64,000 nt of DNA from Bispira polyomma (lineage: Eukaryota). Under the pieces are notes generated by a model. That model saw only the letters and a list, made by a program, of their open reading frames with translations. It was not told where the DNA came from and made no database searches. The translations under genes were made by a program, and so were the position numbers. Positions 7,673-57,800 of the stretch are shown here, one piece after another; position 1 is the stretch's first letter; every line of letters starts with the position of its first letter. The DNA lies in assembly GCA_965649765.1 (NCBI GenBank), contig OZ287753.1:49848001-49912000 (forward strand), in the 5' to 3' direction.

Positions 7673-8044
7673 TATTATACTGATTCTAGCACCGAAACAT
7701 TGCACCAACGTTACGTGTGTAATAATGCATTGTTGTTTCTTATTGTAAAAAGTCCTTATAAACTGAAATAGCTGGAATTACATTGTAATAAAGAATTATA
7801 CATTATAAGTTGAAACTATAATCGCCAGAGACACAGATTCGAATTTTAACAAAGGTCATGACGATGTAAAGCCATAATTGAACTGTTATAATAAATATGT
7901 GCATTATGACATGCATATACAAAATACCTTATTGCATGCATTGTGAGACTATATCTCCTTGTTTTATTATACATACACATGGCCATTGTTTGTTCAATGC
8001 TTCAAACTTGCGAAATTAGGAGATATATTTTACATTCTGAGCTG

Positions 8045-13650: not shown

Positions 13651-13789
13651 GACACCTGTATAATCAGCTGTTTGCATGTAAAATGTTAAAACCGATTTTG
13701 GGACTGAATAAAATATACCTAATGTTACAACCACACTAGTGTGTGTATGTGGCATCATTTCTATCACTAATTGTTATATATTATAATTA

Positions 13790-32911: not shown

Positions 32912-35900
32912 TGAAACACCAACAGTATAACAGTAGTGGCATTACATATAAAGGTCAATATAAAATATATGAATAAAATAAACTGCTAAAGTTGCAGACA
33001 TACAACCAAATTAAATTATACATTGTCTAGTTATGGACAATTAAAATGAAAACACAAACAGTGTAACAGTAGTGGTATTAGATATAACGATGAATATGAA
33101 ATGTATGAATAAAATTAACTGCTAAAGTTGCAAACATACAACCAAATTAATTTATGGTTTCAGGAAAAAGCTTCAATCCTATCTTTCCAAACTTGTCTGC
33201 CCCTTAGTTCCTTCCTGTACACCCCCACATCATACGTTACAAACAAGGCTGTGTTTTTTACTTCTCTATTGGTTAATTAATTCTGCTGTTGCACTTTAGA
33301 AAATGATTATCCTCAAAAAGGCACGTTAAAAATTCAAAATACAATACAACAGAGCTAAGTAAATGACAATAGAAAAACAAATACTTTAAAAGCTAAAAGA
33401 AGTTGAAAAATCAACTGTAATAAGATACACAATCTTTGCTTATGAGAACCATACAGATAATAAATTATGCATATGTGGGAGGCAAGTGTATTAACACTAC
33501 ACCACTGAAAGCTGCTGTAGTTTAGAAATATTAAACAACTGCATTATTGTACTTTGCTGCACAAATAAATTGATTGTCGCAAGACTAAAATGTGTTTACA
33601 TAGTTTTTACTTAGTGCATAGATGAAACTTATAACCTATATTTGTGTAGCGAAAAAAAAGAAAAGGAAATGCATATCTTTTGTTTTAAATGTCAAATAAG
33701 AACACCAGAGAAAGAGTATTTCTCTTGGGGATCAAGATAGCGCTTCAGAAAAATCAAAAAGTACCAACCTTTCACTGAGGAAATGCAGTGCAGTAGAACA
33801 ACACACCAGAGAAAGAGTATTATCAGGTAGACATTGTTTATAGAACGATGTCCCAGAGGCAGTCACAAATACGTTGTGCAGAGGTCTACCAGACACAGAG
33901 ACTTTTTCGCCAGACAATGTTTCTGCCAAAAAAGATGTACGAGATGTATGAATATAAAATGTTATAAGCAAAGTCATGTTTCCTAAGCAATATATATGTC
34001 TCCTGACTTATAGTTTTGTAATATTGACAGCATACTGTGAAGAATTTTGGCTGCTCTGCAAACGACCCCCCCTTAAGCAAGTCTATTGCCAACTTTTCCA
34101 CATACATTCAATGGGCAAGATTCAAACCCATGCCTGCATATGTGGGAGGCAAGTGTATTAACACTACACCACTGAAAGCTGCTGTAGTTTAGAAATATTA
34201 AACAACTGCATTATTGTACTTTGCTGCACAAATAAATTGATTGTCGCAAGATAATAATCACTTGTTGAAAACTCCAAATAAAAAAAAAATGAAATAATTT
34301 GGATAACAGGTGTGATTTCTACCTGAAAATGTCCTGAAGATAGACTTGAAGTCATTTTGTGGCATGTCTTCAAACACAACCGATACTTGTTTATCTGGAC
34401 CATAATGGAATCTGATTATCTCTGGAATGTTAAACTACATATATAAACTTGCAGTACAGTTTAGCAGATAAAACGTTGAGGTACAAAGAGACTACTATGT
34501 TAATAGAAACGATTTTAGAATTGAGCTTTAGTTATCAAATCTTAAAATCTTAATTAAATATACTGCCCATAACAAATCCTGCTCACCTGAATATATTTAT
34601 GTTTATAAAAGCAATATAAGTGAAGGGCACATGAAATATTAGATACATCATAGTTTGCTGTTTACAAAGCTACACTGGAATAGTGAGTTGCACCAACAAC
34701 TTTACAATATAGATAACCCGCTTGCTATAATGGTTGAAGGAAAAATTATAATACACTGGGTAACTTATTGTCCTGATTCAGCATTATTCCCAATGTTATA
34801 TGAAATTGTACTGATTTAACGAAACGCTTGTAAGAACACCTGGAAGAAATGCGCAAGCAATAGAAAAATACAGAAATACTTACCAACAATTTCAGGGAGT
34901 ATTTGGATAAATCCCAAACCATCAGCAGTACCAAAGTCAGCTATTGTGAATGGTCCGTCACTGTTCTCTAGCGTTCTTGCTTGCTCTGAAAATTAGAGTG
35001 CTATTTAAATCAACACAAATGGGGGTAATTTAAATTACTACACAAGTGCGATAATTAAATAATTAAATTGCACTCAATGGTGTAATGATTTTACCCACAA
35101 ACCCCCTCCACTGGAGTTGGCATAAAAAAAATTAAGCTACCCTTGCAATTTTATAGTACCCACTGTGTTTTTTACAAAAACATCTGGAATTGCTGCACTT
35201 CGAAAAATATTGTCATCCCAAGGCATTGTTTTACCATAGGAAGTATTTGCTATTAAGTAGTCTATTTATTGAATAAAAGTTTGATTTTCAACTTATCACC
35301 CTCTTTGGGAAAAGCAAATCTGCTACCATTCCTGTTTAAAGTTTAAATTTATTTATGAAATAAGAATAAACTGTTCACCAATGGCAGGTCTGTTTGTAAT
35401 TTTAATTTAGCAGACAGATAAGCACTGAGAAATACACTAAAGCCAAATGCTGAACTTACAGCCAAAATCAAAGTACTCTGTGCACCTACATTCCTGATAG
35501 TTCAATCAGATATATACTTCTAGCCAAACTGGCTAAACAGTACAAACTTCCAAGTTGTTAGCAAACAACTTTAAAATCAATAATAACATTCGCAGTGACA
35601 TAAAATGATTTCTAAATTTTCTTCCCCAGTTCAACGGAGTAACTTTTATCAAGCCTATCGAAATAGATAAAACACATATGATGTATCTCAACGCTTGCTT
35701 AACAGGAACAGAGGCCATTTGGGTGGATCAGGTATATGCTACACCCTTTCATAATATATATAGCCAGGAGATTTCCATTATATATCTGGAGATGGTCGAT
35801 ATAGTAGTGTCGTTCAGCATTTAGGCTGAACATGGGGCTCACTACAAAATTTTCTCTTTTTTTGGCATTTTTCGGGTTCTTCAGGATGTTTAATCTAGCA

Positions 35901-38474
35901 TCTCATCCTACTGCAAAATTTGACCATTCCAGACATTTACTTATAATTATAATTCAGTGGGCCAAGAATCTACAAAATAGAGACCAGGCCCACATTATTT
36001 TAATTCCATATTTAGGCAATTATATTTTATACCCGGTTACAGCACTAAAAAATTGCTAGATACCACAACAGTCTGGACCTACCTTGATTCTACTTGTAAG
36101 GCTGCTTCAGTTTTTCCTGTTATTTTGAAATTTTCCTAGTTTAGTTTGGGGCTTTTAAATTCTTAGTACAATTTATACTCTTGCTAGATTTTTTAGGGCG
36201 CACATAGATTCACTAATATGTATATAATACAATTCTTAAACATTCTTTTACTGTGTTTATCAAACTAATTTGAAACTTGTAAGGCAACAATTTGTAACCC
36301 AAGGTCAAACATCTTACCATTTTGTTAGACCTTTCAACCCACTAGGTCAAAACACTTTCATCTTTTTCAAGTTAAAATTTATTATACGGAACTCAGAGAC
36401 GCCCGGCCATATAGGGGCCTGCTATGTCTGTTTCTAAAAATTTGCTTCCACCTTAAACAATTTAGCTATTGCTGCCCTAGCTAGGCTTTGACATTTCCCC
36501 TCTATATTTAATTGCGGTACTGAAGGTGACACATATAATGAAATAAGCCACCGTCAAATATACATCCAGGTGCCAGTCATGCATGTAGGTTATATTGAGT
36601 GTTTAGTGTGAATATCATATGTAGGGAGAACACGTTGTATCAGAGGTCTGACTCACTATTTAATACGCTACTTGGCAGCAGTTTATTTTTACTTAAACAG
36701 TTACTATAACTATAGGTTCCTAGGGCTAATCAAATTATGGTTGATTTGGGCACAGGACCGTGTGGAAGTGTGGTCCTGTCCTCCATGCTTCCCTCTATCT
36801 CATATAATGCATGCCGGTTTGTGGGACAGGACTGGCCTCTGCTAGGCGATTAGGTACCACAGGTCCTTGGCCCTAATTCATGGCCATATGCATATGACAC
36901 CTTAAAAATTCAGTTTCTAAAATGTTCATTACAAATACACTATTGGGGAAATTCTAAACAGAGGGTACAAATGTGGCAAGCATTGTTGCTATTTTTCTTG
37001 GGTGATGAAATAACTTATTCTTCTCTACGTGTGGTAGCGCCGAATTGCGGAACCTCGATAAATATTTTATATTAACGGTTACTGCTAAGAGTGTTTGAAA
37101 GCGCCGGTTGGTGTATTTGGAGGATGTTGTTTTTGTTGGCACTAAAGCAGAGGTAGTCCAATGTGTTGTTGTGTGGTTCTTTTTTACTTACTAGCTGGGC
37201 CAGAGTTTTTTTTATAAAGCCACGATAATGGAACAGTGGGTTAATTAGCTTAATGATTATGATGGAGATGGTCTTGTGATGGTCTGGTAACAAACGTGAT
37301 TTGCTTGTCAGAAGCAGTTTTGCAGGTTTGTGTGTGTGTGTACAGTGTCATACTGATAGACTGATGAATTTTATCACTGTGATTTGCTTTTTATAATAAA
37401 TATGTTACCAGTGCTTTATATTTTACATGGTGACTTGCATGTTAATAGTGGTGATAATATGTAATGTGTTTTCTGTATCCAAAAGGTGATCATAATTCTA
37501 GTCAGTATTGGATCATGTAGTTAGTTTGTAGTTGTTCAGTAATGGTAAATCTTGCATTTATATTTTATAGTTATATTTTTATAATGTTATATTTTACAAC
37601 TGTTTCTAGTGTTTTGGGTAATATGTTAAATATTTGAAAGTAATGTGTAACAGTATTTGGGTTAGTTATTTAATCTTGTCGGTAGGTTTAACTTAAAATA
37701 ATTAATTGATTACTTAGATTCTTAAATAATTTCAGTATTTTTTTAGGTGTTTTTCCTGTTCTTCCATTGATGTAAATGTGACCGCTGAACCCGTGTGGTT
37801 AGATGGTAGGAAAAAAATATCAAAAAATCTTTTAGTCAAGTTGGTGGTTGTTCTTCAATAGTCAAGACCCTATCAGCTAATCCCTACTTAAGTCCGGCAA
37901 CCTGTAGTCAAGACCAACCCTGATTGCATCTGGCAACATACGTATTATGTTTAATTAATTTTATAACGTGGATATAGACTTGATGTTTAGTTTATGGTGT
38001 CACAGGTTATCATATTATCTAGGATACTAAATTATATTTACACTTGTAAATTTGCTTTTGTTGTGGTTATTTTTTTAATTTAAAGGCTTTGTATGGTATG
38101 TGTATTATGTATTATTTTTCACTGTGTTTTTTCCATCTTGTTACACCTTTGCCCGCACGAGGTCAAAACACTTTCATCTATTTTAACCTAAATGTTTTTA
38201 TTAGGAACTGTAGTAATTAATATATATATATGCAGATATTTGAGAAGAGAATGTAGTATATTTAATATTGCTACTGTTTTGTATAATATATCAATAATAC
38301 AAAAACAAATACTAATACAACAATAAATAATATACCTACCACATACTTACCATGAAGGGCCTGTCTAATATATTTCAGCTCCAATTCATGAACTTGAGTT
38401 GCATATATATTCCTATGGCTATAACTACTAAGACCCTCCTCATCAAAATACATTAAGACACTACGATTTTCCAT
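30217..38474 (-). CDS. SABATH-family (Methyltransf_7) SAM-dependent small-molecule methyltransferase, copy A, intact, 379 aa; exons 38351-38474, 34884-34985, 34323-34421, 33769-33922, 32601-32725, 31982-32115, 31249-31426, 30217-30440
   Basis: All introns GT-AG with consistent phases (1,1,1,2,1,0,1) and no internal stop. Motifs IADFGTADG, EDMPQNDFKSIF, SGTSFYKQCLPDNTL, STALHFLS, DLEKFLLLRAKELRTGGFMV. An upstream in-frame ATG at 38507 (390 aa) is possible, but copy C aligns to 38474. Confidence 0.92.
32842..32904. repeat. (TA)n microsatellite
   Basis: About 30 TA units. Confidence 0.98.
32904..33151. repeat. Diverged ~135-bp tandem duplication (intronic)
   Basis: AATTAAAATGAAA...CTGCTAAAGTTGCA.ACATACAACCAAATTAA occurs twice. 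Confidence 0.85.
33960..34175 (-). mobile_element. tRNA-derived SINE (family 2)
   Basis: A-box-like TGGTGTAGTGTT and B-box-like GGTTTGAATCT, followed by a TGTGGAAAAGTTGGCA body. Confidence 0.6.
35832..38210 (+). mobile_element. Old Ngaro-type 3' remnant (YR fragment, B1-A2-B2) in intron 1 of SABATH copy A
   Basis: FLAFFGFFRMFNL...IQWAKNLQNR YR; direct repeat AGGTCAAAACACTTTCATCT...GGAACT at ~36344 and ~38160; degenerate junction hairpin 36388-36434. Confidence 0.7.
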
Positions 38475-39630: not shown

Positions 39631-40700
39631 ACACAGCACAACCCTGAAGGGGTCTGCTCATTCAGTTCAAAATAGAAAATTATATATCTTTTCCTTAACT
39701 CTAGGGGACCATTCGAGTACTGTTCAATGGCTTCTCTTTTATTAACCAATGAACCCCAAATTTCCCTTTAAAAATGCTATCCTTCCATATTGAATTTCGT
39801 TTAACAACAGTCAACATCAGATTATTTTATTAGTATTTTAGTTTTTTATATTGAGGGGTTTTAATTTTATATGTGTACTTTTAACTGTGAATTGTATAAA
39901 TTAAATATGAAGAAAGGTATTGATAATGACCTACGGGTGCCGTTCGACCAAGCTCTCAGCTCTCATCAAACTTCTCCTCAAGCGGGATGTTCCACTTTCC
40001 CATCGGCAGACATGACTGGGTTTCACCACCATACTTCTATGCTTACAGGCATGTTGCCTTCATCTCTCCACCATATGTCCCCGGCTGACCCAACCAGCGG
40101 AAGTGCCGAAATATTGACTATATTGAACCTGACTATATTCAACCATCAGGCGCCATGATCCAGCAGGTATTGCTGTCTTTGAAGGATGCTTGGTCGCTTC
40201 CTCAGGAGGTAGTGCATACGGCTTGGACTACTAGTAGATAGGAAGTGAAGGAGGGTCGGCTGACCTGGAGCGATACGACCCAATAGTCGCTTAATAGAAT
40301 CAGCACATTACAGACGGGCATGGCTAACTCTTCACACCCGACCAGTTTGACCAGTTTGCATTCCGGCAGATCCACCATATGTAAACTTTTCAACTTGGGA
40401 AAGTGTTTGCACAAGACCGACCATGGTAACTACAAGCATGCTTGCTGGCATTGCATGACTGTGTTAAACAAAGACTTACCCCATTCTGAGTTTAAATGCT
40501 ACAAAGATAATTCCACAAAACAGATGGAAAATAAAAGTAGTTAGGACCTTGACCGACTACCAGTGAATGGAACATTTGCAGTGAGTTGTAGGGATAGAAT
40601 TGTAGGAAATAAATTACTTAAGATAGAAAATTTGAGCAAAAACTGTACCATAGCATCCCCAAACTGGTTCTACAGTCTGCCAAATCCGACATCCAAAGTA
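39631..40700 (+). mobile_element. Ngaro-type 5' remnant (left terminus plus degenerate gag)
   Basis: Terminal half-hairpin 39631-39669; gag zinc finger CKLFNLGKCLHKTDHGNYKHACWHC...HSEFKC, paralogous to 41850-42404. Confidence 0.8.
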
Positions 40701-41018
40701 TGCACAGCAGGACCCTTTAGGGGCCTGATACTTCAGTCCACTTACAAACCTTTTAACTTTCATCACAACCTTAATTTCGGTTATACCAACAATATATGTA
40801 GCTATTTACTGGGCTACTAGCCAATCACAGCCCACACACTTGTTGTTTAGGCTTCACTTTCCAAATCACCATTTTGAATCTACATTCAAGCTATAAAATT
40901 CAAAGCAACAACAAGTGAAAAATATTTTATGAAATAAATGAATTGTATTTATGTGATTTTATTATTTTAACTTGGTTTTTATGACACATTGTGTGCTACA
41001 TATTGTGAATCAATCGAC

Positions 41019-42404
41019 ATGGGTCGTACTAAGAAAACGCCCACACACAGCTCAGTTAAAAAATCGACCAAGAAACCACTTACAGCAAGAAAGACAAAGG
41101 AAAGGCAAGTAGTTGATTCTCTCGTCTTGGACCTCGACGGTCAATTATCACAGGTAGCGGGCCCCTCTAGTACTGACAATTCTTTTCAACAGATAAATAG
41201 CGATGCCTCGCCAATGATGGCGACTCGGGGGTCCCTACTTAGGCCGGGTTCCGACACAACCAGCAGCCAGAATTCTGACCAAATGCTTGCCATTCTCATG
41301 AGGCTTGAAGCTTCTAACGCCGACTTAGCTGGCCGTTTGCAGAAAGTAGAGCAACAGGCATCGACTAACGCATCCATGTTACCTACCCCATCCCTCCTCG
41401 GGACAGGTCACACACCGGCCATCGGGCAGATGGGAACTACAGCTTCACTTAACGTGCAGGGTACATCTGCATACAACCAACCTGCTACAGGCCACCACGG
41501 TCAGATCGCTGCCGGATCACTACCACAGACGGGTTATCCTCCTCAACAACCAGCACAGGGCAACGCTGCATTCGCGCTTCCCACTCAGTCAGGCAATATT
41601 GCATGAGCTTATATGCAGAACACTAGACCAGACATCCCCGTAGCAACACACACGGGCTACGCGGGTCACGATTACCAACGAGACGGGATCGTACCGAATC
41701 TAGATGCTTTAAGAATCTTACCTCACGTCCAGGCGGAAGTTACCAGACAACTTGCTCAGTATTCAGCACTTGCACAGTGAGATATAACACAAGGTAAGGC
41801 ATCTCTTAAGCATAAATCGGGACGGTTCAATAACACAGACGTCACTTCCATGGATCCCAGGCTAAGGTGGCCTAACGAAGGGTGGGTAGGGGGTTCTTCA
41901 AAGAAGAAGCAAACGTTCGATGAACTCACACTGCCGCAGTGGGCTGCAGGGCAGCTCGCTAACGCGCTATTAGTACCTAACCCTGCTGAAATGAAGGATA
42001 TGGTAAGACAAATAGTATCAGCACTCAGAGATGCTTCATCTCTTCCGTGGCACGTTGTCAGGACAGCCTGGGCTCTCAGTATGCACGAGGTTGAGGAGGG
42101 CCGGCTGTCCTGGCAGAACGACACCCAATGGTCACTGAATAGGCTCAGTGCTTCCCAGGTAGCCATGGTCAACAGTGCAAACGTAGGTATTAGCAACAGC
42201 AATTCTAGCAACGATTCTAAACTTATTTGTAAGTTATATAACAATGGTAAATGTACCCACAAGTCAGATCACGACAAATACAAACACATCTGTTGGCATT
42301 GTAGCCGAACCCTGGGGAAGGACTCCAACCACCCCGAGTTCAAGTGTTACAGATCCAACAGTAAACAGCTGGACACTCAGGTAAACCAAGGAAAGCAAAG
42401 CTAG
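41019..42404 (+). pseudogene. gag: Ngaro gag (two in-frame TGA, at 41604 and 41778)
   Basis: ORFs 40989-41606 and 41850-42404 share a frame; RWPNEG, FDELTLPQWAAGQL, C-terminal Cys/His finger. Confidence 0.85.
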
Positions 42405-42685
42405 GTAATTCTTCAACAACCAGGAGAACGAACTATAGTTAAAGATAATTGCAAAGTAGAAATAAGAGATGAGCATGATAGTAACATTAAAATTGTAAAA
42501 GGTGAGCTTAAATCTAATGATGTTGATAATATACTGTGTTATGGTAATGAGAACAATGAACATATTAATGGAAATGAGAACATAATGCAAAACAATGTGA
42601 ACAAAATGTACTCTAGTAATTTCACAAATGTTTCGAATGAGGGCATGATGACGGAGTACAACTGTTTATCAGAGCATTATGATTT

Positions 42686-45139
42686 TTGTATGACAGTGTG
42701 CAATCCAGATGCAGTGGAAGTAAAATGCAGTACTGCAACAGCGAGTTAGCTGGTTATGTTAATTCCCAATACTATGATGGTAATTCTAAAGAAAGAGAAA
42801 GTAAAAATCAGATAGAAGTAACAGTCACTGTCACCAATTGGCAACATTTTTGTAAAAAATGGTTCGTTTGGGCTCCAATAATATTCTTAAACTGTAGCTG
42901 CAATGAAATTGAAGGGTTTTACTACATATACCATCATAGTGGGGACAATGAAATGAAATACATGCCTGTGTTTAATATACCTCAAGGAGATCTGCAGGTC
43001 ATACACAGATATGTCACAGCCATATATTATGATCTCACAGATAGATGCAAAAAATTACTAAGTAAGGTTAATCAGTGTAATGCTGAGGATATTGAACAGG
43101 CAGCCAATGTTTTCGACAATTTCAGTAAAGATGGAAAGTGTTACAAACAGTATGGCTGCGACTATTCTGAATATATAACGAATATTATTGATATTATGTG
43201 TGATGATAACTGGAAAGTAGATGACAATGCAAGCAGTGCAGACAAATTCAATGTAAATACTGCAGCTGGACACGAGACTCCAAGGAGTGTGCTCTGCGAT
43301 GAAATATACACATGTCCGATTCGCGATTTTTTCTTCAAAACTGATGGGGTCAATGCTGGCACCAGTAAGAACATTAAGGAAAATTGTCATATCGCCCAAT
43401 CAGGAAAATCAGTGGGATTTATTCCATTATCTTCCACAAAATTTCAGTTTATTGGTCCTGATCAGGAGCCAGTAAAAGTTGATTCAGTTGGTAAAATGGA
43501 AAAAATTGCTGCTATAGTTAGAGGCACTAATCTCCCTAATTATAGGCAGGCTAGAATTCCTTTAATTTCGGGATTACACCACACAGCGTGGGAGGAAATG
43601 CTTACTGACTATTCGGATCAGCTATTAATACAATATATAAAATTTGGGTTTCTTCTATCTCTCACAGAACCAGGGAAACTAAATAATTCAAAAACTGTCA
43701 ACCATTACTCTGCTTTGCAATTTACGAAAGAAGTCGGGCAATATCTTGAGAAAGAAAAGTCAATGGGGGCGATGTTAGGCCCAGTTAAGCAAGTGAACTC
43801 ACCACACTATCACTGCTCACCCCTTTTAACCAGACCCAAAGACACAGACAAACGTAGGGTCATTTTAAATCTTTCTTATCCACTGGGGCAGTCACTAAAC
43901 GAGAATGTAGACAAAGCACTGTTCGATGGGGTCAAATTCATATTAAAATTTCCTACTATTGACGACATCACAGAGGCGACTCGGAATACTCATGATCCAG
44001 TGCTGTTCAAGATCGACGTGGCCCGAGCGTTCCGTAACTTGAGAGTTGATCTAGCTGACGCACTGAAACTAGGCATACAATTCGCTGAAGGGCAGTACAT
44101 TGACTCTGCGGTCGCGTTCGGGTGGATACACGGAAGCGCGGCTTTTCAGTGTTGTTCCGATGCCATAGCAGCCTATATGTCGGAACGCGGGTTTAGAGTA
44201 TTTTGCTACATCGATGACTACATATGTGTATGTACTAGAAATAAGGCTGACAAGGGTTTCCGTATTTTGAAAGATTTATTGCTTAGGCTAGGTTTCCCAA
44301 TTAACGATGATAAGCTTACACCTCCCACAACTCGCCTTACATGCCTAGGCATAGACTTTGATATTACTGCCGGCACTATTAGCATACAGGAAGAAAAACT
44401 TATAAGCATAATTAAAATGGTAAATGACACCTCTCAAAAATTGCACATTTCACGTACTCAGTTTCAATCTTTATTAGGAAAATTATTATATGTTCACAAG
44501 TGCGTGAAACCTGCCAGAACTTTCATAAATAGATTACTTCAAGGTTTCAGAAGTGATCACAATGCTAAAAAATTCAAAATTTCTTCTGAAATGCGCCATG
44601 ACATCGACTGGTTTCAAAAATTCTTACCTCAATATAACGGGATATCATACATTAACCATAGGGACATTTCCCATATGGACGAGTTACATCTGGACGCCTG
44701 CCTATCAGGTTTAGGAGGTGTCTGGAACAAAGAAGTGTACTCTACACCATATTATAATGTTTATCAAAGAGAGCTTACCATAGTGCATATAGAGATGCTG
44801 AACATTGTCCTGGCTTTAAAAATTTAGGGTGAAAAATGGGCTCACAGTAGACTAATAATTCACTGTGACAACATGGCCGTCGTACTGGTTGTTGAAAGTC
44901 AGAAGACGAAAGACGAATTTCTAGCATTATGCTTAAGGAACATTTGGCTACTTATAGCCACATATGACATTAATATTAGCATTAAGCACATTCCAGGCAA
45001 GGAAAACATAATAGCAGATGCCCTTTCTAGAATTTATTGCAAAACTCCTCCCAGCAGGGACATGTTATATAATTTATACAACAATTATGTTTGGAATCCA
45101 GTACTCATACAACATTTTGACCTAGATTTTTTAATATAA
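42686..45139 (+). pseudogene. pol: Ngaro RT/RNase H (one in-frame TAG at 44825)
   Basis: NHYSA, SPLLTRPK, RRVILNLSYP, KIDVARAFRNL, FGWIHG, YIDD, LDACLSGLGG, HCDNMAV, HIPGKENIIADALSR. Confidence 0.92.
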
Positions 45140-45145
45140 TTACAG

Positions 45146-46122
45146 GTGCTACTGCCATTACTCAGAAACTCATCACTTCAGCATGTGGAAGGATTGACAC
45201 AGCACTTAGACCAAAGACTTCTTCTGCTTACGAAAATCAATTTAAAACTTTCCTGGCTTTTAATGAATTTGCAGGCATTTCAAATACTTCGGTTCATTCA
45301 GTACTGGCCTTTTTGGAATATTTGACACAAAATAACATTTCCCCTGCTGCGGTGTCAAACTACCTTTCTGCTCTTAAATTCATGGCTAGAAAGTTCATTT
45401 GGGATTTAGCTCCATTCAATCACAATTCTTTTGCATTATTCGTCAGAAGTATTACAATTAATTCACTATTTCGTCCCAGACACAAGGGATTGTTTGATAT
45501 TGCACAGCTAGCACAGATTTCCATAGCATGTTCTATTCTAGATGACCCAATATTATACAGATCCATATTTATGGTGGCCTATTTTGCTTTTTTGAGATTA
45601 TCCAATATTGCCCCTCACTCAAGGGCCACATTTGATAGATCTAGGCATTTTCTCAGACAGGACTTAATTTTTGGACATCCTGGGGCTCACATCATCCTAA
45701 AATGGGCAAAAAATTTGCAAAATAGGACAGATACACATATAATACAAATTCCAAAACTACAAAATAAGACTATTTGTCCAGTATTGGCATTACAAACCTT
45801 ACTAGCTTCCAGGCCCCTTCCTCCTGCTGCACCACTTTTTGCAGTAGCTGGTACACCACATTACACCATAGTACAAACACATGTAAGGACAGCTCTGGAA
45901 AAAGTCTTGACACACATTGGAATACAATATTCTTCACATGGATTCCATACTTTCAGACGTTCTGGAGCTTCATTTGCATTTAATCATAATGTATCCCTAC
46001 AGAATATAATGGCCCACGGGCTTTGGAGATCATCTTCAGTTTGGGCTTACCTCCAAAAAACCTCCCAGGCAGCATCAGTCGTGCCTCATACCTTTGCCTC
46101 TTCCATTCCTTCTTCTCTCTAG
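45146..46122 (+). CDS. Tyrosine recombinase (YR) of the Ngaro element; open frame with no ATG near its start, beginning at a splice-acceptor-like site
   Basis: ALRPKTSSAY N-terminus; catalytic R (FLRLSN), K (WAKN), HTFRRSGA, HGLWRS, VWAY. Confidence 0.88.
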
Positions 46123-47143
46123 TTGGGCTTGGGGCTTAAAATTTTCTGAATTTTAACCATTTTTACACTTGTTTCTCTGTACATATACCATTAACATGTA
46201 TATATAAAATAAAGCTCAAACTGAACCGTTTTATTTACTTACACAAACATCACACTTGACTTAAAATCCATTACTTAACATCTTGAACCCAACTTACACC
46301 TTATAACTTAAGTGGACTGCAATAAAGTGAACAATCAGTTTTATCGGATTAAAACTCTACCTAGGTGTGTTGAGGCATAGGTAAAGGGTTAACTGACCCT
46401 ATATGCCGGATCAGACCCAACAGTGAGACACCTTATAAGATTTTGTCTTTTCTGACTGGCGTCTGGGTTATCAATAGTACATATAAAAATCAATAACTGG
46501 TTCACTGCATTCCATGCTATTGTGATATCACAAAACATCGAAATGCCTCGTTTAGATATATGGCGATGTTTCACTAGTAATTTTGTTATTTGGGGCAAGT
46601 TATAAACATTTTAGTGGTGATATATATGCATTTTAGTAAAGTTTACAATGTGTATTTCGGTGGGGTTTTAAATAAATTTTATTATTCATTTACATTATAG
46701 ACACATACATCCAGCAGTTGAAAAATCAAGAAAACATCAAAAAAATTAATTTGTGCTGTACAGGTGTGACATTGCCTGGAGCTTTTGGCTTAGTTTTATG
46801 CTAAATTCTACAAATATAATTTGTGAATTATTTCGAGGTTTTTTGTTGTTGTTTTTATGAAATTTTCTTTATCAAATCATATAGTTTAATCCTAGTATGT
46901 ATTGATTTTTATGAAAAAGCACACACAGTAATATTTCACATTATGTAAACCTGAACTATGTATCAAGTTTTGAGTAATCCAGGTATCATGATTTTTCAAA
47001 AACCTCAGAACACCAGAACAATGTTTCACAATTTCATTGTATCTAAATATATAATCCAAGTCACGAACACAACAAACGCAAATAAAGCAATAATACCAAT
47101 AATATTTCAGATAAGTTTCACATGTTATTTTACATACTGGAGG

Positions 47144-47259
47144 AACTACCACCTTTCCAACATAGGCATCAACGAGAGTCGAACTCACGCCGCCCAGAGG
47201 TGAGAGACCAGTGATTGTGAAGCGCAATGCTTGCTAACCACTAGGCCACCGCAGCCCCC
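47144..47259 (-). mobile_element. tRNA-derived SINE (family 1), 5' half
   Basis: GGGGCTGCGGTGGCCTAGTGG...GAGTTCGACTC; homologous to 6058-6175. Confidence 0.85.
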
Positions 47260-48953
47260 TTTGATGCTGTAGTATTCTAAACTATTATTTTCAGCTTAAA
47301 TTTTTATTAAATGCTAGCACATCCTAAAATATAATTTAGTTCAATTTTCGTGGACCAATCTTAATCTGTTTTAATTGAACTTTTAATGTATGAAATTTGT
47401 GCATAAAAGCTTCTACTTAGAAGATTCTACTTTACTTAATAAGAACTTCATCCGTGGGTGTGTTGAGTAAACTACTCGAGTCAGACGAAACAAAAAAATC
47501 ACGAGTCTTGGCATTGCAAATTGCATAGAATTTATCACATGTCGCCTTGAGCTTTTGGTGCACTCACCTTCAATAAAATGTACAAAAATACATGTGAAGA
47601 GCTTAACGCCGTCTGCAGTTCAACCATGTGGCTGAATAGTGGGTCAGGTTAATTGGGGTTCTAAAAGGCTAGTGTGTAATCTTCAGTGTGAAAGCAGCAA
47701 GCAAGGGAGAAACATCTCTATTCCACAGCATGGCGCAGCTTGTCAGGCTTACAATTAAAGCTCCAAATCAGAGAATATCAAGCAAAAAGCAGCGGGAAAT
47801 TCACTGTATTTACCTGCTTATTTTCTGAGTTATAGGTGAGTGGTCTAATCTAAAATAAGGTATTAGATTTTATGAATATTAAACGCAAAGTGTTCATTCA
47901 TTCGTGTCAATGAAAATGTGTTTCTGATAAAACTAATCTGATACAGTGGTTTTTAAAACTGTTTTTGTGTATATATAAAAGATTAAAAATGAGTTGATCT
48001 CACAAAATTTCTGACAAAGTTTTTTTGTGGTATTTTGATAATGTCTAAAACAATGTATTCATCTATTTAGTCATACACAAGGTATAGTATTACGAATAGG
48101 AAATAGATGAATGTTTTTATAACTAGAAACAATGCCATGAAACACTATTTACAGTTGGCAATTACATTTGATTTTATGCAAACCTTCAAACCAAAACATA
48201 CCATAAGGTTTTTATATAGCGTCTTACCAGCCAATGCTGTTCAAGGCGCTTCAAAGTTATGTACATTTATAATGTACACAAACATTCTAATTTCTAACAT
48301 ATAACTCTGTATAATTAAACTTAGTATTATTTCTCTCTTTATTACAAATGAGATCTCTAATATTTCCAGATATTATTTTATTATCTGTGTTATTCTGAGA
48401 GTGAACATACTGATCACTAACATTTTAAATTCATGATGTACCTTAAGACAACATTTATAACTAAAACTGCTTTCCTTTATAATTACATTAATAGTTTTAT
48501 TAACGTTTGAATTACTTACATAAACAGCAAGTTCTACACACTTGTTATCACTGGTCAATATTGTATGTATAAATTTTTTAAATGTTTCTATACAATTGCA
48601 CATTAATTAGGACATTATTACATACTAAATGTATGTATCTACTATGAGTTCTGTTTGGCAGGTTAAATCGTTTTGTTATTGCTTTTCTCTAGCAACTTCA
48701 CACTGAACATAATATTTACAATTGCATTATAATATTCAAAAAATTTAAATCAACGCAATATATTATAATATTATCCTTGTAACATTTCATCCTGATTTTA
48801 TTTTTTGAGAAATGGATGTGTGTCGATACTTTTCACACGTTTATTTCATGAATCAAAAGTGCAACTTAGAACCTCTGTTAACCCTTATGACCCTAATTGA
48901 TACTCCTAGGATCTATGTCTGTGGGCAAGTAGTCAATACACCACAATTATTTT

Positions 48954-49085
48954 ACGTGTATTTTAAAGTTCTCGATATATGATGCACAGAACTTCTTGTT
49001 ATACTAAATGGATCAATAACGTGTATTTTAAAGTTCTCGATATATGATGCACAGAACTTCTTGTTATACTAAATGGATCAATAAC
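48954..49085. repeat. 65-bp perfect tandem duplication
   Basis: Identical units starting at 48954 and 49019. Confidence 0.95.
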
Positions 49086-49199
49086 TCATATATAATACAT
49101 ATATAAGCTTGGTGTTTGATAAATGGGTCATAATTTCAATGTTTATATTGTAACGACATCATATGATATCATATAACCACATTAGTTAGACCTTCGTTA

Positions 49200-52100
49200 C
49201 GACTGAACTTACAAAAACAGTATTAGTACAAACTAAGTAAGGACCAAGATACAGTTTAAGGTATTTATTCTGTACAAAGTTAGTATGTACATACAGGGGG
49301 AGGTAAAAGGTATATTAAAATATTATAAAATATAAGACTTTAATATACGCCAAAACCTAACTAAATAGAGGAAGGGACAATGGATGAGAAGGTAGAGGAA
49401 ACAATGGAAGCAGCTTGAGAAGTGGATTGGAGGTAGGACCACACTGCAGAACTGCGGCAAAGTCCGTGGGCCATAATGTTCCGGAGAGAAATGTTATTGT
49501 TGAAAGCTGCTGTTGTGCCAGATCTGCGGAAAGTATGGAAACCATTGAATGAAAGGTCAATCCCAAGGTGCTGGATAATTTGCCTAAGAGCAGATCTGAT
49601 GTGAGAGTAAATAATGGGAAAATGTGGATTGTTAGCAAAGACAAATAGTGGGGCAGATGGAGGTAAGTCCTTAGAACTCAGAACTGCGGAGAGTGCCCCA
49701 CTGGACATAAGAGAGAGACATTGATGGAGGGAAGTTGTATACCATGGGTGCTAGTTCTGTCTTGCAATTCTTGGCCCACTTAATAATTAAGTGGGCACCA
49801 GGGGAACTAAAAACCATGTCTCGTCGAAGGATGTGCTTGGTGGGGTCAAAATTTGCCCTAGAGTGGGGGGCTATATTAGACATTCTTAAAAAAAGAGGAT
49901 GGGATCCTGTAAAGTCTGACAGGACTGAGAAATGAGAAATAAGTGCTAGATGGTAAACAAACATTTAGGCGCAGGCCTAAACTGTGAATTGTGTACCAGA
50001 CTACGAATGAAAAGTGAGATGGCATGGTGATGTAAAATATCTGACAAAATATTGAATTTCTGAGTCATGAATCTTAAGGCTGCCAGATTGTTGTTAATGA
50101 CTTTAGGAGATTGTGCATTTTGGGTCAAATACGTCAAAGAGGCTAGAATAGAGTGAACAGAAATGTCCCGCATGTTAACGTAATGCAGAAAAGAAAGGAA
50201 TGTTCTAAACTGCGAAGTGAAGTGTAAGCTGCAGTGTTGGAAGGTCTAAGAGCTGTAAAGTCGTCGAATGGCAACCTGTAATTAGATATTGCTATCTAAA
50301 TTATGGTAATGTAAAGTGACATCTCTACATGTGTGATTTCTAAGTGAGAACATGATATGAAGGTCGATAGGGTGTATGGAATATACGAGCGACAACGCAT
50401 CAGTGTATATATTATCCTCACCCCTAATATGCTAGAATTATTATGGTAATATTATAGATGGAAGTAATGAGTCATATATTGCATATGCATGAAGCTAAGA
50501 ATGGACCTATGGTCTTGCAGGTCGTCACAACCAGGACTACTGCTAAATTGCTGCACTTAAAAGTAACGTTATGGTGAGCCCAGCTCTCACCCAACCCTAA
50601 GAAAAATAACAACATTGAGCATGGAGTTAAATAAATTTCCTGACCCCATCAGGCCAATCAAGGTCATGTTTCATGTTGTCGGTAACTTTAAATCTTTTGG
50701 AATTGGGGGAAGCCCTGAGTACGGCTAAAAGCCTGTTGATAAAACACCTTGCGGGTTTCATGGATTTATGGATGTAAACCCCTACCTAACAGTGATTGGA
50801 GCCTAGTATGAGAAAGCCAGGTTTTACTACGGGCTTCCATGCATTCTAAATGTATTTGGTCAATTTTTTCTTTGGTTATACTTATAGTACTAGCAGAGAT
50901 ATCCACATTCATGCCCAAGTAGGTGACCTTAGTAGAAGGGGGGAAATTTTACTAGGATTGATGGGAAGACCCAAATCGTCTAACAATTTACATAATTTTT
51001 CAAAACCATCCTTAGCCTTGTCCTTAGGGCAAATGCAAAGGTAATCATCTATGTAACAATGGAGTCTAAAACCTAAACTAAGCATATGGTCGGCAATAAT
51101 GTCAGAGCACCTCTAGAAGGCAGCGCTTCTCAAAGCCCATAAACATTTTCAACAACAGAATCAGTAATTACATCATCTGCCTTGATGATGTCATCAATGA
51201 CGTTCTGCATGTAAACAGTGTGATCACAATCCCGAGAACACAGGGATTTAATGTCTTTACTGTAGTCAACGGAAATTCTAGTGTGAAAAATGTAAGATAC
51301 ACCAAAAGGGAAACTAGGAATGTCCCAGAACAGGAAGTAAACCATGACGCCGTTATCACAAGTTTAATTTTAAAAACCAGATGCGCTGTTATAATCAGCA
51401 ATGTTCGAAAACATGACAGGGTAACAACCCTAATGGTCTACATATGAAAAATTCAGGACTGGAATACTGCAAACCATATTTCAGACGTCAACACACAAGG
51501 GTGAATTGTTGACATGATCCGAAATAACATCTCTGTCAAAATCATTATGACCCCAATTTTTGTGTGCATTATGAATCCCATTATTTGACCAGCAGTATAA
51601 TTTTATCAAGGGATCCACACGATCAGGACATACATTGTATAACTGATTATCCAAAGAGGAAAACTGATTGTCAACACAATATTTATGAAAACTTTACTAT
51701 GAGTGTCACTGGAACAAAAGTCATTATTAATTAACTTTGCACTATTATTATGAATTATTATGAATTTTTAACACGCTTTATGCTTGGCATCTTCTAAAGC
51801 GCAACAGCAGAATCATTGGTTGACTACTATTAATTACTACACTCTTGGCAGTGTCTGTCAGTGTCTTGACAGTGTCTGTCATGCGTCGTCGAGCACCATC
51901 CTAGCTTGTTTGGCACTATTTACTTTAAGACATTTGCACTTGCGATGATTGTTCTCCTTATTCAAAACCTTGAAACAGTGAGCACATTGATGTTTATATT
52001 GATTATGATCTCCATCGTGGCTGCAAAAGCCAGAGTTGAAGTATTTGCAGATTACCTTGGGTTTCTGCATGGTGTGACCATTCACCAGGGCCAACTGAGA

Positions 52101-53212
52101 CATGCTAAGTCGATATAACGACCACTGTGTAGCATTGATCCAATCAAGCCTGCCCTCTTCCGCCTCCTGCATGTTATGACCCCATGAAGCTCTGAGAGTG
52201 GCCAGGGGAGAGCGTTGGCATCCTGAAACGCATAAATCATCTGATATAACATGGATTTGATAGTAGTGATGTCTGAAACCTAAGCGATGTTGGAGAGCTG
52301 CCCTGCAGCCCACTGGGGCATTGAAAGTTCATCAAATTGTGGCCTCTTGCGTGCCGTGCGCCCCACCCAGCCTTCGTTGGGCCATCTAGTCTGTGGTTCA
52401 GTAAGGCAAATGACTGTAGAATTAAATCCACCAGATTTCTGTCTGGTCGGGGGCTTACCTTGGGACAGATCCTGTTGGCAGCGCTGGTCGCAGGCTGCAA
52501 GGCAAAGATTGATGGCCGCGCTGACCTCAGGAAGATTCCTAAGCACATCGACTTAAGGGACAATGCCGTCGCGCATGTACTCGTGACTGGCCTGCATTTG
52601 ACATGATTCCTGTCTCTGAGGTAAAGTGTTGGCGAGACCCACAGCAGCCTGGAGTCACAGATCCGGACGTCAGAGGTCGGCCATAGTGTTGTTGTGAGAT
52701 GGGTTATGTGGAGAATGGCTATTGGAGAATGGCCATCATTGCACAGACATCTGGTGTGATATTCTCATATGGGATTCTCGTATCTTGTTTGCTAGCTTCC
52801 GAGAGAGGGGCTCTTAAATTTCAGGCAACGGGGTCTGCTGATACTTTACCACTTTTTATAGATTTTGTCTTGGCTGTAGGAGCGCTACTAAGCGTTTTTC
52901 TAGCAGTCCGTCCCATAGTTAAATGTGAACAAGCGTGACTAGTATAAAAAACAAATAAACACTAAAACAAATAAAACTCTGAAAGAAAAAGTTCACAATA
53001 TTTGAAAAAATATAGTGTGCTCACCCTTCAACCATTTAACATTGTGCCTGTGTGGGGGCCAAAATCAGTAGCACATGAAGTATGGGTGGGTGATTGGACA
53101 ATAGCTAATGAGGGATAGACAGAACAGGGAACAAGAATAGTTTTCTTTTAAAAGGAAGGCGAGGAGGATTAGGAGCTGAGACAGCAGGTCCCCTAAAGGG
53201 GTCGTTCTAGTA
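49200..53212 (-). mobile_element. Degenerate Ngaro-type retrotransposon (gag ATG at 52916, deleted RT/RNase H, YR 49361-50275)
   Basis: MGRTARK start, RWPNEGW...FDELSMPQWAAGQL, CYIDDY, FHTFRRSG...HGL.RSSAVWSY; left half-hairpin 53172-53212. Confidence 0.88.
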
Positions 53213-53416
53213 ATACTCCACTTTCCAGGTTCATTTTTTCTAGGTTCATTTTTTTCATTAGATTCCTTAATCATTCTTTTGTTTTCAAATATAAAAATGA
53301 TGTATTATATCTTTTTGAACAGCTATTTAAAAAAACTGCAAGAGTCAAAAATGCGATTGTATTATTTCTCATTCTATATCTTTTCCCTTCACTCTAAACA
53401 CATGGCATATGTATTG

Positions 53417-54790
53417 CAGTCCAGGTGATAAGTTATAAGTGAAGTTAAGGCCAAAATGGAAGTTGAGGTAAGTGTGTGGAAGACAATAAAAGATTTCTAT
53501 TGAGGTTTTATTTTACAAGTTAGTATTTATGTACAGGTTAACAATAATAAAATAAGTTATAATTTCATGTAAATAAAAATTTCAAGCCCATACAGGCTAC
53601 ATACATAACAGGAAATCATCCTGAATAATCAAAACAAGGACTAGCCATAAGAACAACATTAAAAGCCTAGTACAGACCACATAGTCATACATCACTTTAA
53701 GTTAACAACCATCCACCCCAGAATACTGGCAGTGAAGAAGTAATTATATAGTATGCATAAATTTAACGTAAAATAAAACTAATATCACTAGAATCAGTAC
53801 GTGATCGTTTCATTACATAAGCAATACAGGATCACTAATTATCCATCATATACATAGTCATTCTAAGGTGTGATCGTATATCCACAACAGACAATTTGCT
53901 AACATTACCTATGCACCTATCATAAATGGCACATAAACGTACATACACCAGCAATATAATAAATCCTACAGTGGACTTAACACGCCCATAAATGTTCAAA
54001 TCCCGTGATACTCGTTTACTCCTGACATTGTAACTCAACCGACTACCCGGTCCACTTAGTGCACATTTCCCTACGACAGCTCTCAGCCTGCCATCATACA
54101 TGTTAACCAAGCAACGTGTCTAACTTGACTAACAATGCCCACAGGGCATAGTGACCCTAGAGGGACACTCAGGCTCCCAGAGCCAACTAATTTGAAGGTA
54201 TCTCAAAAATAACATCAGGCCACAAGCCAAGCAATTTGTTGAAAATATTAAATATTAAGCTTAAATGACCACATGTAAGTGGTGGAAGAAAGGGGAGGTG
54301 GTGGGTTAGAATTTTCTAAAGACCTGTTCACAGGGCAAATTATAATTTCAATATGGAGGGAAGCTACTGGCCAAGCCTGTCAGTGGTCAGTATCTAGGAT
54401 GGACAGATGGAGGGATTATGCCATAGCATTCGCTAGGGGTTAAGGTAGCAATTAATTAAGTGAAGGGGGAGTTGGACTGAACTAGCAGTGTCCTATAGTA
54501 GACTTGCTATGCACAGTCCAGGTGATAAGTTATAAGTGACGTTAAGGCCAAAATGGAAGTTGAGGTAAGTGTGTGGAAGACAATAAAAGATTTCTATTGA
54601 GGTTTTATTTTACAAGTTAGTATTTATGTACAGGTTAACAATAATAAAAGAAGTTAAAATTTCATGTAAATAAAAATTTTAAGCCCCAAGCCCAACTAGA
54701 AAGGGGGGATAGCCGCAGCAAAGGTGAGAGGCACCACTGAGGCAGCTTGGGAGGTCTGCTGTAGGTAAGTCCATACAGCAGAAGACCTCC
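53417..54790 (-). mobile_element. 5'-truncated Ngaro 3' end (last ~31 YR codons, B1-A2-B2) flanked by a 19-bp direct repeat
   Basis: WRSSAVWTYLQQTSQAASVVPLTF; 173-bp repeats 54514-54686 and 53417-53589 (about 4 mismatches); ACACATGGCATATGTATTG at 53398-53416 and 54791-54809. Confidence 0.88.
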
Positions 54791-54826
54791 ACACATGGCA
54801 TATGTATTGTATTCCCATTTGTAATC

Positions 54827-57800
54827 CTATTCTTTTGTTATCAGCAAAGAGTAAAATAAGTAATCTAACACATATGATAGTGGATCCTTTATCACAATAC
54901 TCCGCAGTTCTGCAAAGTACATCTCCAGGATATCTTGCCTTTCATCTTCAGACCTGGAAGGATTTAATGCCCTGTACTGTGTTACATAACTCCAGGATTT
55001 GACGCTGTTGATCAGAATTACTGCATACTCACTGATCGCCTTGTTATTTTCTGTTTGTATGGAAATAGCAAATATATACATGGGGTTAATAGCTAATAGG
55101 CTTTTACAATTGATTGGCAATATAGTATCCAGTTCTGATAGCTAAGTCAATCTATGTGGTAAAATGGCATTGTCAGGTAGTCAGTCTAAAGTAAGCAACA
55201 GTATTACATATCTGTCTGTCAATCACTCACCAGCCTGTATATAACTCTTTACCAGATGGTCATATGTAGGTGACTGGAGTATGACTTTCTCAATGCTGTG
55301 CAGTCTCAGACCTGATGCTTGCACAGCCGATTCCTCTCCCTCAAATGGCTTCAGCAAGTCTTCCTTGCTACGGAAAGTAACAGGGTAAGTACTTTGTCTC
55401 ACCTCTTCCTGAGCAGGAAAGAATAAATCAATGGTATTACTACTTATGTTTTTGGCTCAATCCATATTTAAAAAATATGTGTTTACGGAGGTGTCTATAT
55501 GCCTTAGCACAGACAAGTTATGTATCCTCTAAATAAAGAACTGAAACCGGGTTTAAAAAAACCAATAAGATACGCACCCACAAACATTTAAAAAATTATA
55601 TCTGTACTCTGAGACAAAGCGTCCTATATGAATGTGGGTTCTATAACATAGTTATTATCTATAACTGTGTTAGTTACTAGATGTCTCAAATATTGCTACC
55701 AGTTATGAGTTATCTATTTATGTGAAAACCATGCAGTGCCTGTTCGTACAGATCTTTGGCTATATATGACCTTCGAGCATGATAGAGTTTGTCACGTTAC
55801 ATATGATACCACGGTACATAAAATAATAATATCAGGTAACAATGCCTAATTAATATAAGCTTTACTCAAATATGTCATTATTAGTGTCCGAAATACTATG
55901 AATCAGATCCTTTTCTAACTATGTGTTATGTCAGATTCATAAAGCCCTTTTTGCAATAATTGTGCCTCAACCTGGCACATTATCTCAGATGTACAGTAAA
56001 CTGAATCGAAGATAACCTGGACTATGAGGATTGCTAAATGCTTTTTAGGTTTAAGTCACTCTTTAAGTGGTGACAAGAAGGGTTGACTAATCATGATGAC
56101 TGCAGAGAAGGATACACCTGCAACCACTCCGCCTGTGCATAGTCTGCACTAAATAAGTCTCACAGGCCCTTCTTTTCCGGATATTTTGTACCCTTTGGGG
56201 TAAGGAGCCTCTACCACCCTTTCTCATTGATTAGGCTTGGTGTCATTGAAATTAACATCAACTATTCAATACACATATTTTAACATGTACAAGGTTTCAA
56301 TAAACTTGCAAATATCCATTTCACTGCCTTTTAATTTCAGTCTGACCTCAAGGTCATGCATCCTCTGGCTTTTGTGTCTAACCTTTTAACTTCACAGTCC
56401 TAAGAATCCTAAAGAGCATTTGTCTAAGTTCTTTGTTGTGTGCTCTGTTTGACATTGTACATATAACTACTACATGGGAACAGTGTTATGTCTATTTCTT
56501 AATTTAAATTTCCCTTTAGTCTGGTATTTACGGGTCATCTGGTAATACATAAAACTCAGGTAAATGTTTTACCTTGGTGATGATTCCTCTTTTGCAAAAT
56601 TCAATCCACAAATCAAAAATTGTTTTAGTTATATTTTTCTGCCTGGTATTTCCTGTATATCTTCCCTGCTCATCATGTCCAATAATAAATAACACCATAA
56701 GTCCTCCTGGAAATGTGAAACGATTTGAAATATGAGAAGATGTATATGATGTATTTTTGTGGTGTACTTTACTGTAATAAAATTGATAAAATTTCGGTCT
56801 GTCTTTGTGCCTCAAGGACCGCAAACTATGACTGTACCATATTCTCTGAATTCAATTAAAATTTGTACTCAGCATAGCATTGTATGTTGCTGTTTTCTGT
56901 CACTTAAAATCCCTAATTACCTCTTTAGACTGCAAGTATAGTCCGCTATTAACTATCACTAATAAAAAGTCCTTGAATTAAGTGATTTGAAAAATTTACT
57001 AATTTTGTCAATATGTCCAATAATACTAATAATACCACTGTAAATGTCTCTGTGTAACTGTTCTTATTATCTTTACTGTATTATAATGTCTTTTTGTAGA
57101 AATAAAAAGACAAAAATTATCACTAACCCAATGACAAAGGATCAACATAAAGAGAATGATTACACCATCACCTTAACTTAAAACAAATTACCCTGCTTGA
57201 ATTAACGTTAAATGACAATGATCATATTTTTTCTTTGATAAATTGATCAAATTATTAAGATTTCTTAGATATGTCTGTATAGCATGGATAGCATGCTTAC
57301 CGCCACATATTTAGACTGTGTCTATTAGCTCTTTAATTTGTCTGTTGAACTAGCAGGTTGTAAGGTATAATGTTTTTCCAATGAATGTGAGGTAGCTATG
57401 TGGTCAGTATAAAAAATTATTATAAATTTAATTTAATCTTTAGATACATAAGCACGTACTTTGAAGTTGATAGTGTTAGTCAGCAGAACGTAAGCTTTAT
57501 TGAACTTTAAAACTGTATGAAAACTGTTGAAGAGCCAAACACTTACTATTNNNNNNNNNNNNNNNNNNNNNNNNNNNNNNNNNNNNNNNNNNNNNNNNNN
57601 NNNNNNNNNNNNNNNNNNNNNNNNNNNNNNNNNNNNNNNNNNNNNNNNNNNNNNNNNNNNNNNNNNNNNNNNNNNNNNNNNNNNNNNNNNNNNNNNNNNN
57701 NNNNTTGAGACAGGACTAAAAGTAGAGTAGAAGGGGTAGAAGAGCTTGTTTTGTGGTGGATAACTTCCGGTATTTTGGGCTGCTGTCCCCCACCGGAAGT

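Follow-up and report, generated by a model that had tools for sequence, protein, structure and literature searches.

Conserved splice signals point to a spliced Gag–recombinase mRNA in a Ngaro-like retrotransposon of Bispira polyomma

Organization of the element

We analysed a stretch of 64,000 nucleotides (nt) from Bispira polyomma (assembly GCA_965649765.1, contig OZ287753.1, positions 49,848,001–49,912,000 of the forward strand), called the window in the following. Approximately between positions 40701 and 46321 of its plus strand lies a Ngaro-like tyrosine-recombinase (YR) retrotransposon with gag, pol and YR genes, here named copy A. Judged from sequence signals, its recombinase is probably translated from a spliced mRNA in which the N-terminal part of gag, Gag(N), is joined to the YR frame.

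Copy A comprises a 5′ region, gag, pol, YR and a 3′ region, as recognized by open reading frames (ORFs), domains, end motifs and depth steps. Its ends were set by the end motifs common to the further copies C and D and by steps in read depth; it starts with TGCACAGC (40701–40720) and ends in GGACTGCA (46300–46321). A putative promoter, called by motif match only, is found at 40821–40897 (+) with a CCAAT box at 40821 and a TATA-like box at 40892, and copy C has a similar order of promoter boxes 5′ of gag. The gag-like ORF (41019–42404, +) encodes a basic N-terminus, a heptad-like stretch, a conserved P-x4-LR helix, a WP..E domain and C-terminal Cys/His motifs; it has no Pfam match and was called by its position and its Cys/His motifs. 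The pol region (42405–45139, +) begins with a long unconserved N-terminal stretch, which is followed by reverse transcriptase (RT) and RNase H (Pfam RVT_1, E 2e-10; RVT_3, E 1e-5), and ends ∼37 codons past the DALSR motif of RNase H. The YR coding region (45146–46122, +) carries a core-binding and a catalytic domain, so that RT, RNase H and integrase domains are all recognized by Pfam in the element. The 3′ non-coding region (46123–46321, +), the equivalent of a B repeat, contains AATAAA at 46208 and is 73% identical to the 3′ region of copy D.

Three further copies of the family lie on the minus strand. Copy B (11727–15399) consists of decayed pol and YR, and a gag remnant was not detected in it. 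Copy C (49350–53230) is decayed as well and has lost the 5′ part of pol. Copy D (53417–54848) is a 3′ end only, with the tail of YR followed by two 173-nt direct repeats (98% identity) around ∼920 nt. The repeat junction in copy D, GGACTG-TGCATAGC (54530–54505 and 53430–53410, both on the minus strand), suggests a conserved end-to-end joint. In addition, four related loci (L001–L004) were obtained out of 92 pattern matches in a scan of metagenome contigs; no related loci were found in the viral contigs or in the genome contigs searched.

The ORFs for gag, RT/RNase H and YR have the same orientation and YR is the last of them, as in Ngaro elements. Pfam scans of the pol of copy A, L001 and L003 revealed no methyltransferase domain, and the inverted terminal repeats that mark DIRS1-like elements were not found in a repeat search. 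A DIRS1-like identity was rejected on both grounds, and a PAT-like identity since the methyltransferase domain is missing. The split-repeat layout of Ngaro elements, A1-ORFs-B1-A2-B2, is described in excerpts of PMC4157794 and PMC8547959. Partial sets of these repeats are present in copy D, whose repeats sit in a B1-A2-B2 layout, and in L003, where 211-nt direct repeats stand before gag and after YR (A1/A2); all four repeats occur in no single element. Copy A has no internal long repeat and lacks the A2-B2 repeats. By its ORF order and the partial split-repeat layout of copy D and L003 the element is filed as Ngaro-like; the YR tree used here comprises relatives found in this analysis and one long-branch fish model.

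Predicted acceptor and start of the recombinase

The YR frame of copy A (45121–46122) has no ATG near its start, as the original prediction had stated. Its first Met is codon 80 counted from the Gly at the predicted acceptor, and the SAM-like core-binding domain identified by Pfam lies 5′ of this Met, so that translation from there would lose the domain. When the protein from 45148 onwards was modelled, a helix formed immediately at the start and the mean predicted local distance difference test (pLDDT) value was 85. In a fold search the model matched Cre (1pvr) over ∼328 columns (E 2e-9, template modelling score 0.67, 16% identity). Thus the acceptor is predicted to fall at the first helix of a complete Cre-like fold with two domains, and translation must enter YR at or just before the acceptor. 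The catalytic motifs RLSN, KWAK, HTFRRSG, HGLW and AYL are intact in copy A.

The predicted acceptor, TTACAG|GT, is joined to the pol stop TAA (45137–45147, +) and cuts the YR frame in phase 1 at 45145|45146, the last intron base being 45145. Copies B and C carry TAATTACAG|GT at 12755–12745 (−) and 50284–50274 (−). The prediction that the pol stop is fused to an acceptor therefore holds for A, B and C; it is a peculiarity of the window's clade, as spacers of 334 nt in L001 and 253 nt in L003 separate pol from the acceptor. A phase-1 YAG|G acceptor is nevertheless present in 6/6 cases (A, B, C, L001, L002 and L003), the relatives having TTTGTAG|G, TTTGCAG|G and TTTCCAG|G. In the five YR genes without a frame break it lies 20–21 codons ahead of the RP motif (21 in A and B; 21, 21 and 20 in the relatives). 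The codon before the acceptor Gly is ACA, ACA, ACA, GTA, GCA and CCA (T, T, T, V, A and P), that is always NYA, and YAG|G is kept throughout.

An indirect footprint of this site can be traced in the protein sequences of further relatives. Since NYA-G codons allow [STPAVLI] followed by G or D, such pairs are expected at the acceptor. Among 270 YR representatives 36 reach far enough upstream, the others starting later or having no anchor; 22 of the 35 usable ones show [STPAVLI][G/D] at the acceptor offset, versus 0–9 at ten neighbouring offsets.

Predicted donor in gag

The predicted phase-1 donor of copy A, AAG|GTAAGG (41791–41799, +), is kept in copy C, L001, L003 and L004. From the gag ATG at 41019 to the cut after 41793 there are 775 nt, which gives phase 1, and by a simple consensus score the site ties for best among the 197 GT sites between the gag start and the acceptor. 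We confirmed that CAAG|GTAAG stands at the same place of gag in copies A and C (in the latter after 52459 on the minus strand), and the three new gags have CAAG|GTAATT, GAAG|GTAAAA and AATG|GTAACG. A phase-1 G|GTAA donor is thus found in 5/5 gags. By hand count from the alignment, it lies 24–29 codons past the invariant Arg of P-x4-LR in all five gags and 7–34 codons ahead of KSG, where the conserved helix ends and a variable linker starts. Of 1620 gag codons, 9 have a phase-1 G|GTRA, and four of these nine are predicted donor sites; in the gag of L004 the predicted donor is the single phase-1 G|GTAA. The gag of copy A has a further phase-1 G|GTAA at 42246. Past its stop codon by 32 codons, a phase-1 donor-like AAG|GTGAGC (42499–42507, +; cut after 42501) ties with the main donor by the consensus score.

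Donor and acceptor are both in phase 1, and removal of the predicted intron of 3352 nt (41794–45145, +), which spans the 3′ half of gag together with the whole of pol, would close the frame to 583 codons. The predicted first coding exon, Gag(N), comprises 258 codons plus 1 nt (41019–41793, +) and the second exon is the YR coding region given above. The frames close in three complete elements, yielding 583 amino acids (aa) in copy A, 458 aa in L001 and 511 aa in L003; the spans equivalent to the intron are 3441 nt in L001 and 3108 nt in L003.

Conservation in diverged relatives

The relatives are far removed from copy A, with identities of 26–32% in gag, 38–40% in pol and 34–43% in YR, and in a 39-row YR tree the elements checked at the DNA level are spread over three separate clades. 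At fourfold sites the third bases agree at 0.20–0.44 in all 17 pairs, including those among A, B and C, where ∼0.3 is expected at saturation. As these sites are saturated, the shared splice motifs are not explained by descent.

One might argue that the motifs are by-products of coding constraint (Gly-Lys/Asn at the donor, Ile-x-Gly at the acceptor) and of AT-rich sequence. Both sites do fall on Gly codons, and GGT is the commonest Gly codon (0.33). But YAG|G is constant at the acceptor although the amino acids encoded around it differ, the 5′ side of the acceptor lies in a spacer outside pol in L001 and L003, and the saturation of synonymous sites speaks against this explanation as well. With observed codon use and amino acids held fixed, the chance for L001–L004 alone was calculated by hand as ∼0.33^3 x (0.29 x 0.33 x 0.36) = 0.036 x 0.034 = 0.001. 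We consider an origin of the motifs from coding constraint extremely unlikely. The claim that the motifs are kept beyond coding constraint thus held up outside the window, in 3/3 metagenome relatives for the donor and in 3/3 for the acceptor, with a differing amino acid before the Gly. In short, the splice signals are real, conserved and phase-matched, and conserved phase-compatible sites as expected of a spliced subgenomic mRNA are present (5/5 donors and 6/6 acceptors). The conservation in relatives supports the proposed gag–YR fusion with pol removed as an intron.

Related proteins and published accounts

Four GenBank models from Cirrhinus mrigala (KAL0150992.1, KAL0193293.1, KAL0153043.1 and KAL0197541.1) have a Pro-rich N-terminus of ∼400 aa joined to YR and share one junction sequence, IRTQILAEIQIAG. 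This N-terminus may be the gag of a fish Ngaro element, and the models lend weak support to a spliced fusion. The RefSeq model of the same YR from Labeo rohita is flagged as partial. In the ESM Atlas the top cluster for the fish model has 593 aa and 133 members, most commonly from Mollusca, with 29% Phage_integrase, which is a lead only. A search for longer YR relatives gave two proteins, and the protein search gave no longer gag relatives. One of the two longer YR relatives, P0001, joins pol to a YR that lacks its N-terminal part and is read as a deletion copy.

Goodwin and Poulter are said to have mentioned in 2004 spliceosomal introns in some YR retrotransposons, so a prior mention is possible. 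In the literature passages searched we found no description of a spliced gag–YR product; annotations of elements may be given in supplements. The string 'splic' does not occur in the main text of PMC3783388, PMC8547959, PMC9210276 and PMC3266345, and passages of PMC7192593, PMC4157794, PMC6681497, PMC2632668, PMC9341512, PMC12477816, PMC4495291, PMC3212892 and PMC9940879 contain no account of gag–YR splicing.

Evidence against splicing and alternative modes of expression

A number of observations weigh against a spliced mRNA. The splice is predicted from DNA signals, and neither a spliced RNA nor an intron-less genomic copy was seen in this analysis. The contigs examined stem from three runs of one study, none of them registered as RNA; they extend over non-coding flanks and look like DNA. 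The donor-to-acceptor joint is not among the 15 of 51 joints listed in these contigs, but since they drop rare variants this does not speak for its absence. Regarding the donor, the sites of L003 and L004 are only moderate, as 18 of 255 and 15 of 98 GT sites, respectively, score equally well. Within the gappy linker the donor Gly was selected by eye; MAFFT does not align all five residues in a single column, and in L004 another Gly, which is not part of a donor, precedes the donor Gly by three codons. Regarding the acceptor, the pyrimidine tracts are modest (T/C 0.48–0.67), and a branch-point-like motif was not found at the usual distance in copy B or L001. L003 has an in-frame ATG 14 codons ahead of the acceptor, and in 15 of 36 representatives the gene caller places the start three codons ahead of the acceptor Gly. 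The Cirrhinus models are gene predictions whose N-terminus showed no similarity to the gags described here in a profile comparison; among the proteins fetched none joins a window-type gag to YR and none matched these gags. Finally, the predicted first exon of copy A contains two in-frame stops (41604–41606 and 41778–41780), so that this copy is unable to make the fusion, and its pol has one in-frame stop (44825–44827) and one frame break. At both gag-stop positions the contigs of other copies carry a different letter in all depth, and the two stops therefore look private to copy A.

The published explanation for the expression of YR is of another kind. As quoted from Poulter and Butler (2015) in an excerpt of PMC13003380, the YR ORF lies in the −1 frame relative to the RT/RH ORF, with which it overlaps, and its expression is probably due to programmed frameshifting, which would yield a Gag-Pol-YR polyprotein. 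Copy A has the matching geometry, its YR frame being −1 relative to pol with an overlap of 19 nt (45121–45139). Further evidence that weighs for frameshifting and against splicing is the heptamer T TTT TTA (U-UUU-UUA) in the pol frame at 45127–45133 (+), inside the overlap and inside the T-rich tract of the acceptor. Heptamers of this type are found at 5 of 818 pol codons and would be expected by chance in a 6-codon overlap in ∼4% of cases, which is mild but real support. Yet the heptamer is absent from B, C and L003, and no stable fold follows it in copy A (z +0.94, with an equally good fold in 163 of 200 shuffles). There is no pol/YR overlap in L001 and L003, and since the 334- and 253-nt spacers contain stops in all three frames, frameshifting is not the general route. 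It also leaves the conserved in-phase donor in gag unexplained. We therefore regard frameshifting as very unlikely to be the main source of YR; in the window's clade it could serve as an additional, minor route. Similarly remote is the idea that the acceptor is real and paired with another donor, elsewhere in gag or past a read-through of the gag stop, giving a different fusion. Besides the second phase-1 G|GTAA at 42246 and the equally strong phase-1 donor after 42501 in copy A, L001 and L003 have one and three further phase-1 sites in gag. However, only the site 24–29 codons past P-x4-LR is common to all five gags, and the gag of L004 has no other.

Likewise very unlikely, in our judgement, is the synthesis of YR from an unspliced or internal RNA, whether by termination at the pol stop with reinitiation or by use of an ATG or non-ATG start close by. 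For such a mode one can cite that in A, B and C the start of YR directly adjoins the pol stop and that the start called three codons ahead of the acceptor Gly in the 15 of 36 representatives, a datum from protein only, would fit an ATG overlapping a TGA stop; the upstream ATG of L003 fits as well. The called starts could indeed be an ATG overlapping the TGA stop of pol, or an alternative start codon, as the called 'M' may be TTG or GTG. But at the overlap position A, B and C have ATA, ATA and CTA, and L001 has no ATG in the nine open codons upstream, its pol stop being 334 nt away. Reinitiation, too, does not account for the donor in gag. The spliced Gag(N)-YR mRNA thus remains the reading that we prefer.

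Proposed expression strategy

We suggest that one promoter, with its CCAAT and TATA-like boxes, would produce a full-length RNA serving both as the genome and as the mRNA for Gag and Gag-Pol. Gag-Pol is likely to be made by read-through of the gag stop, as the frame stays open past it. In L001 (1122–1124), L003 (1562–1564) and L004 (2566–2568) the frame continues open for a long stretch past a TGA stop and leads into pol. In copy A the gag stop is TAG, followed by 92 open codons (region 42402–42682) up to a frame break near 42681, which is missing from some other copies. From the gag stop to the conserved start of pol, copy A has ∼330 Asn/Cys-rich, unconserved codons (42405–43400, +), and L001, L003 and L004 have similarly long open yet unrelated stretches ahead of the conserved pol start. 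A splice from the gag donor to an acceptor in pol was considered and rejected: the phase-1 YAG sites near the conserved pol start occur at no shared place. For this reason, and because of the open frame, read-through is preferred.

Splicing of the same RNA would remove the 3′ half of gag together with all of pol and join ∼258 gag codons in frame to the start-less YR, and the efficiency of splicing would set the dose of the recombinase. Most speculatively, through its Gag(N) part the fusion may assemble together with Gag, or enter the nucleus and target chromatin. Gag(N) retains the basic or Cys/His (zinc-finger) start and the conserved helix and is devoid of the C-terminal Cys/His motifs; a heptad-like stretch is present in A, L001 and L003 by a crude score. 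A prediction of a three-copy complex of residues 55–137 of the L001 Gag(N) scored 0.26 (mark 0.32), and a query of the ESM Atlas with this Gag(N) gave no usable match.

A more general scheme appears possible to us, though rather less than probable. Spliced Gag(N)-YR might be the general route of Ngaro elements from the invertebrate-like clade to fish, with one RNA giving three products through splicing and read-through of the stop, and the Gag(N) module loading YR into the particle or steering it to target chromatin; a Gag-linked choice of target would then act through the fusion. Such a choice is discussed for Cafeteria Ngaros in excerpts of PMC8547959.

Other features of the window

Fragments of the same family are found at 35561–36059 (+), where RNase H is joined to the middle of YR with the acceptor region deleted, and at 40152–40535 (+), where a C-terminal piece of gag lies just 5′ of copy A. 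Contigs of the element are ∼15–25x deeper than flank contigs (run X1, sequencing contigs that look like DNA), which suggests a young multi-copy family, depth being no copy number. In L004 a gag starts 840 nt past the end of YR (635–1474), pointing to a tandem arrangement or to an assembly path through a split repeat. No Rfam match was obtained within 40000–55500.

At 10573–11547 (+) there is an ORF of 324 codons without significant Pfam match, the end of which presumably resembles the gag-to-pol region of a DIRS1-type element. Diverged 65/83-nt repeat units form an array at 8041–8615, where neither strand has a long open frame. A dispersed repeat of 113–231 nt, likely a short mobile element, is present in both orientations with 87–92% identity (2726–2956, 6066–6296 and 47141–47259), and 154 N at 57551–57704 mark an assembly gap.

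Comparison with known retroelements and implications

Retroviral env and foamy-virus pol are expressed from spliced subgenomic mRNAs, where splicing from a single donor to a distal acceptor takes out most of the genome RNA so that the 3′ gene is expressed. The predicted splice described here would likewise skip most of the RNA to express a 3′ gene. The comparison with env made in the original prediction is, however, good as an analogy only. The donor lies 137–258 codons inside gag, so a fusion protein and no separate product would result, and a large part of Gag is predicted to stay on the enzyme, unlike in env or foamy pol expression. Retroviruses moreover make their integrating enzyme inside Pol, whereas here the integrating enzyme is the 3′ gene. 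Cre (1pvr and others) shares its two-domain fold with the full predicted second exon but is made by a phage as a separate protein with a start of its own. For Ty1/Copia elements, excerpts of PMC5580714 describe a spliced short gag RNA by which host splicing sets the ratio of structural to catalytic protein; that splice yields Gag alone with early termination, whereas here a Gag fragment is predicted to be fused to the recombinase.

Among the YR retroelements, DIRS1-like and PAT-like elements share the YR integrase together with RT/RNase H, and PAT-like elements also have split direct repeats. Both encode a methyltransferase, however, and DIRS1-like elements have inverted terminal repeats, neither of which was found here. 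The Ngaro elements described in excerpts of PMC4157794, PMC8547959, PMC9210276, PMC3783388 and PMC3266345 agree with the present element in having gag, RT/RNase H and YR in one orientation and no methyltransferase. They further agree in the terminal position of YR and in the −1 frame and short overlap that YR has in the window's clade, and parts of their split-repeat layout are seen in copy D and L003. They differ in that copy A is without the A2-B2 repeats and in that no hydrolase ORF was seen. Furthermore, a spliced Gag(N)-YR mRNA is here the predicted source of YR, in place of the frameshift proposed by the review quoted in PMC13003380. Splicing is a known strategy of retroelements; what departs from the printed model is the Gag(N)-YR product and the role that it would have for Ngaro elements.

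For the expression of the start-less YR there had been no more than a guess, namely the programmed frameshifting of that review. The conserved pair of splice sites offers a different answer that is testable at exact coordinates. If it is true, the YR proteins of these elements in the databases are N-terminally incomplete, and Gag(N)-YR is the form to use for the biochemistry of these eukaryotic Cre-like integrases. The dose of the recombinase would be under the control of host splicing, and intron-less, non-autonomous daughter copies of the element would be predicted.

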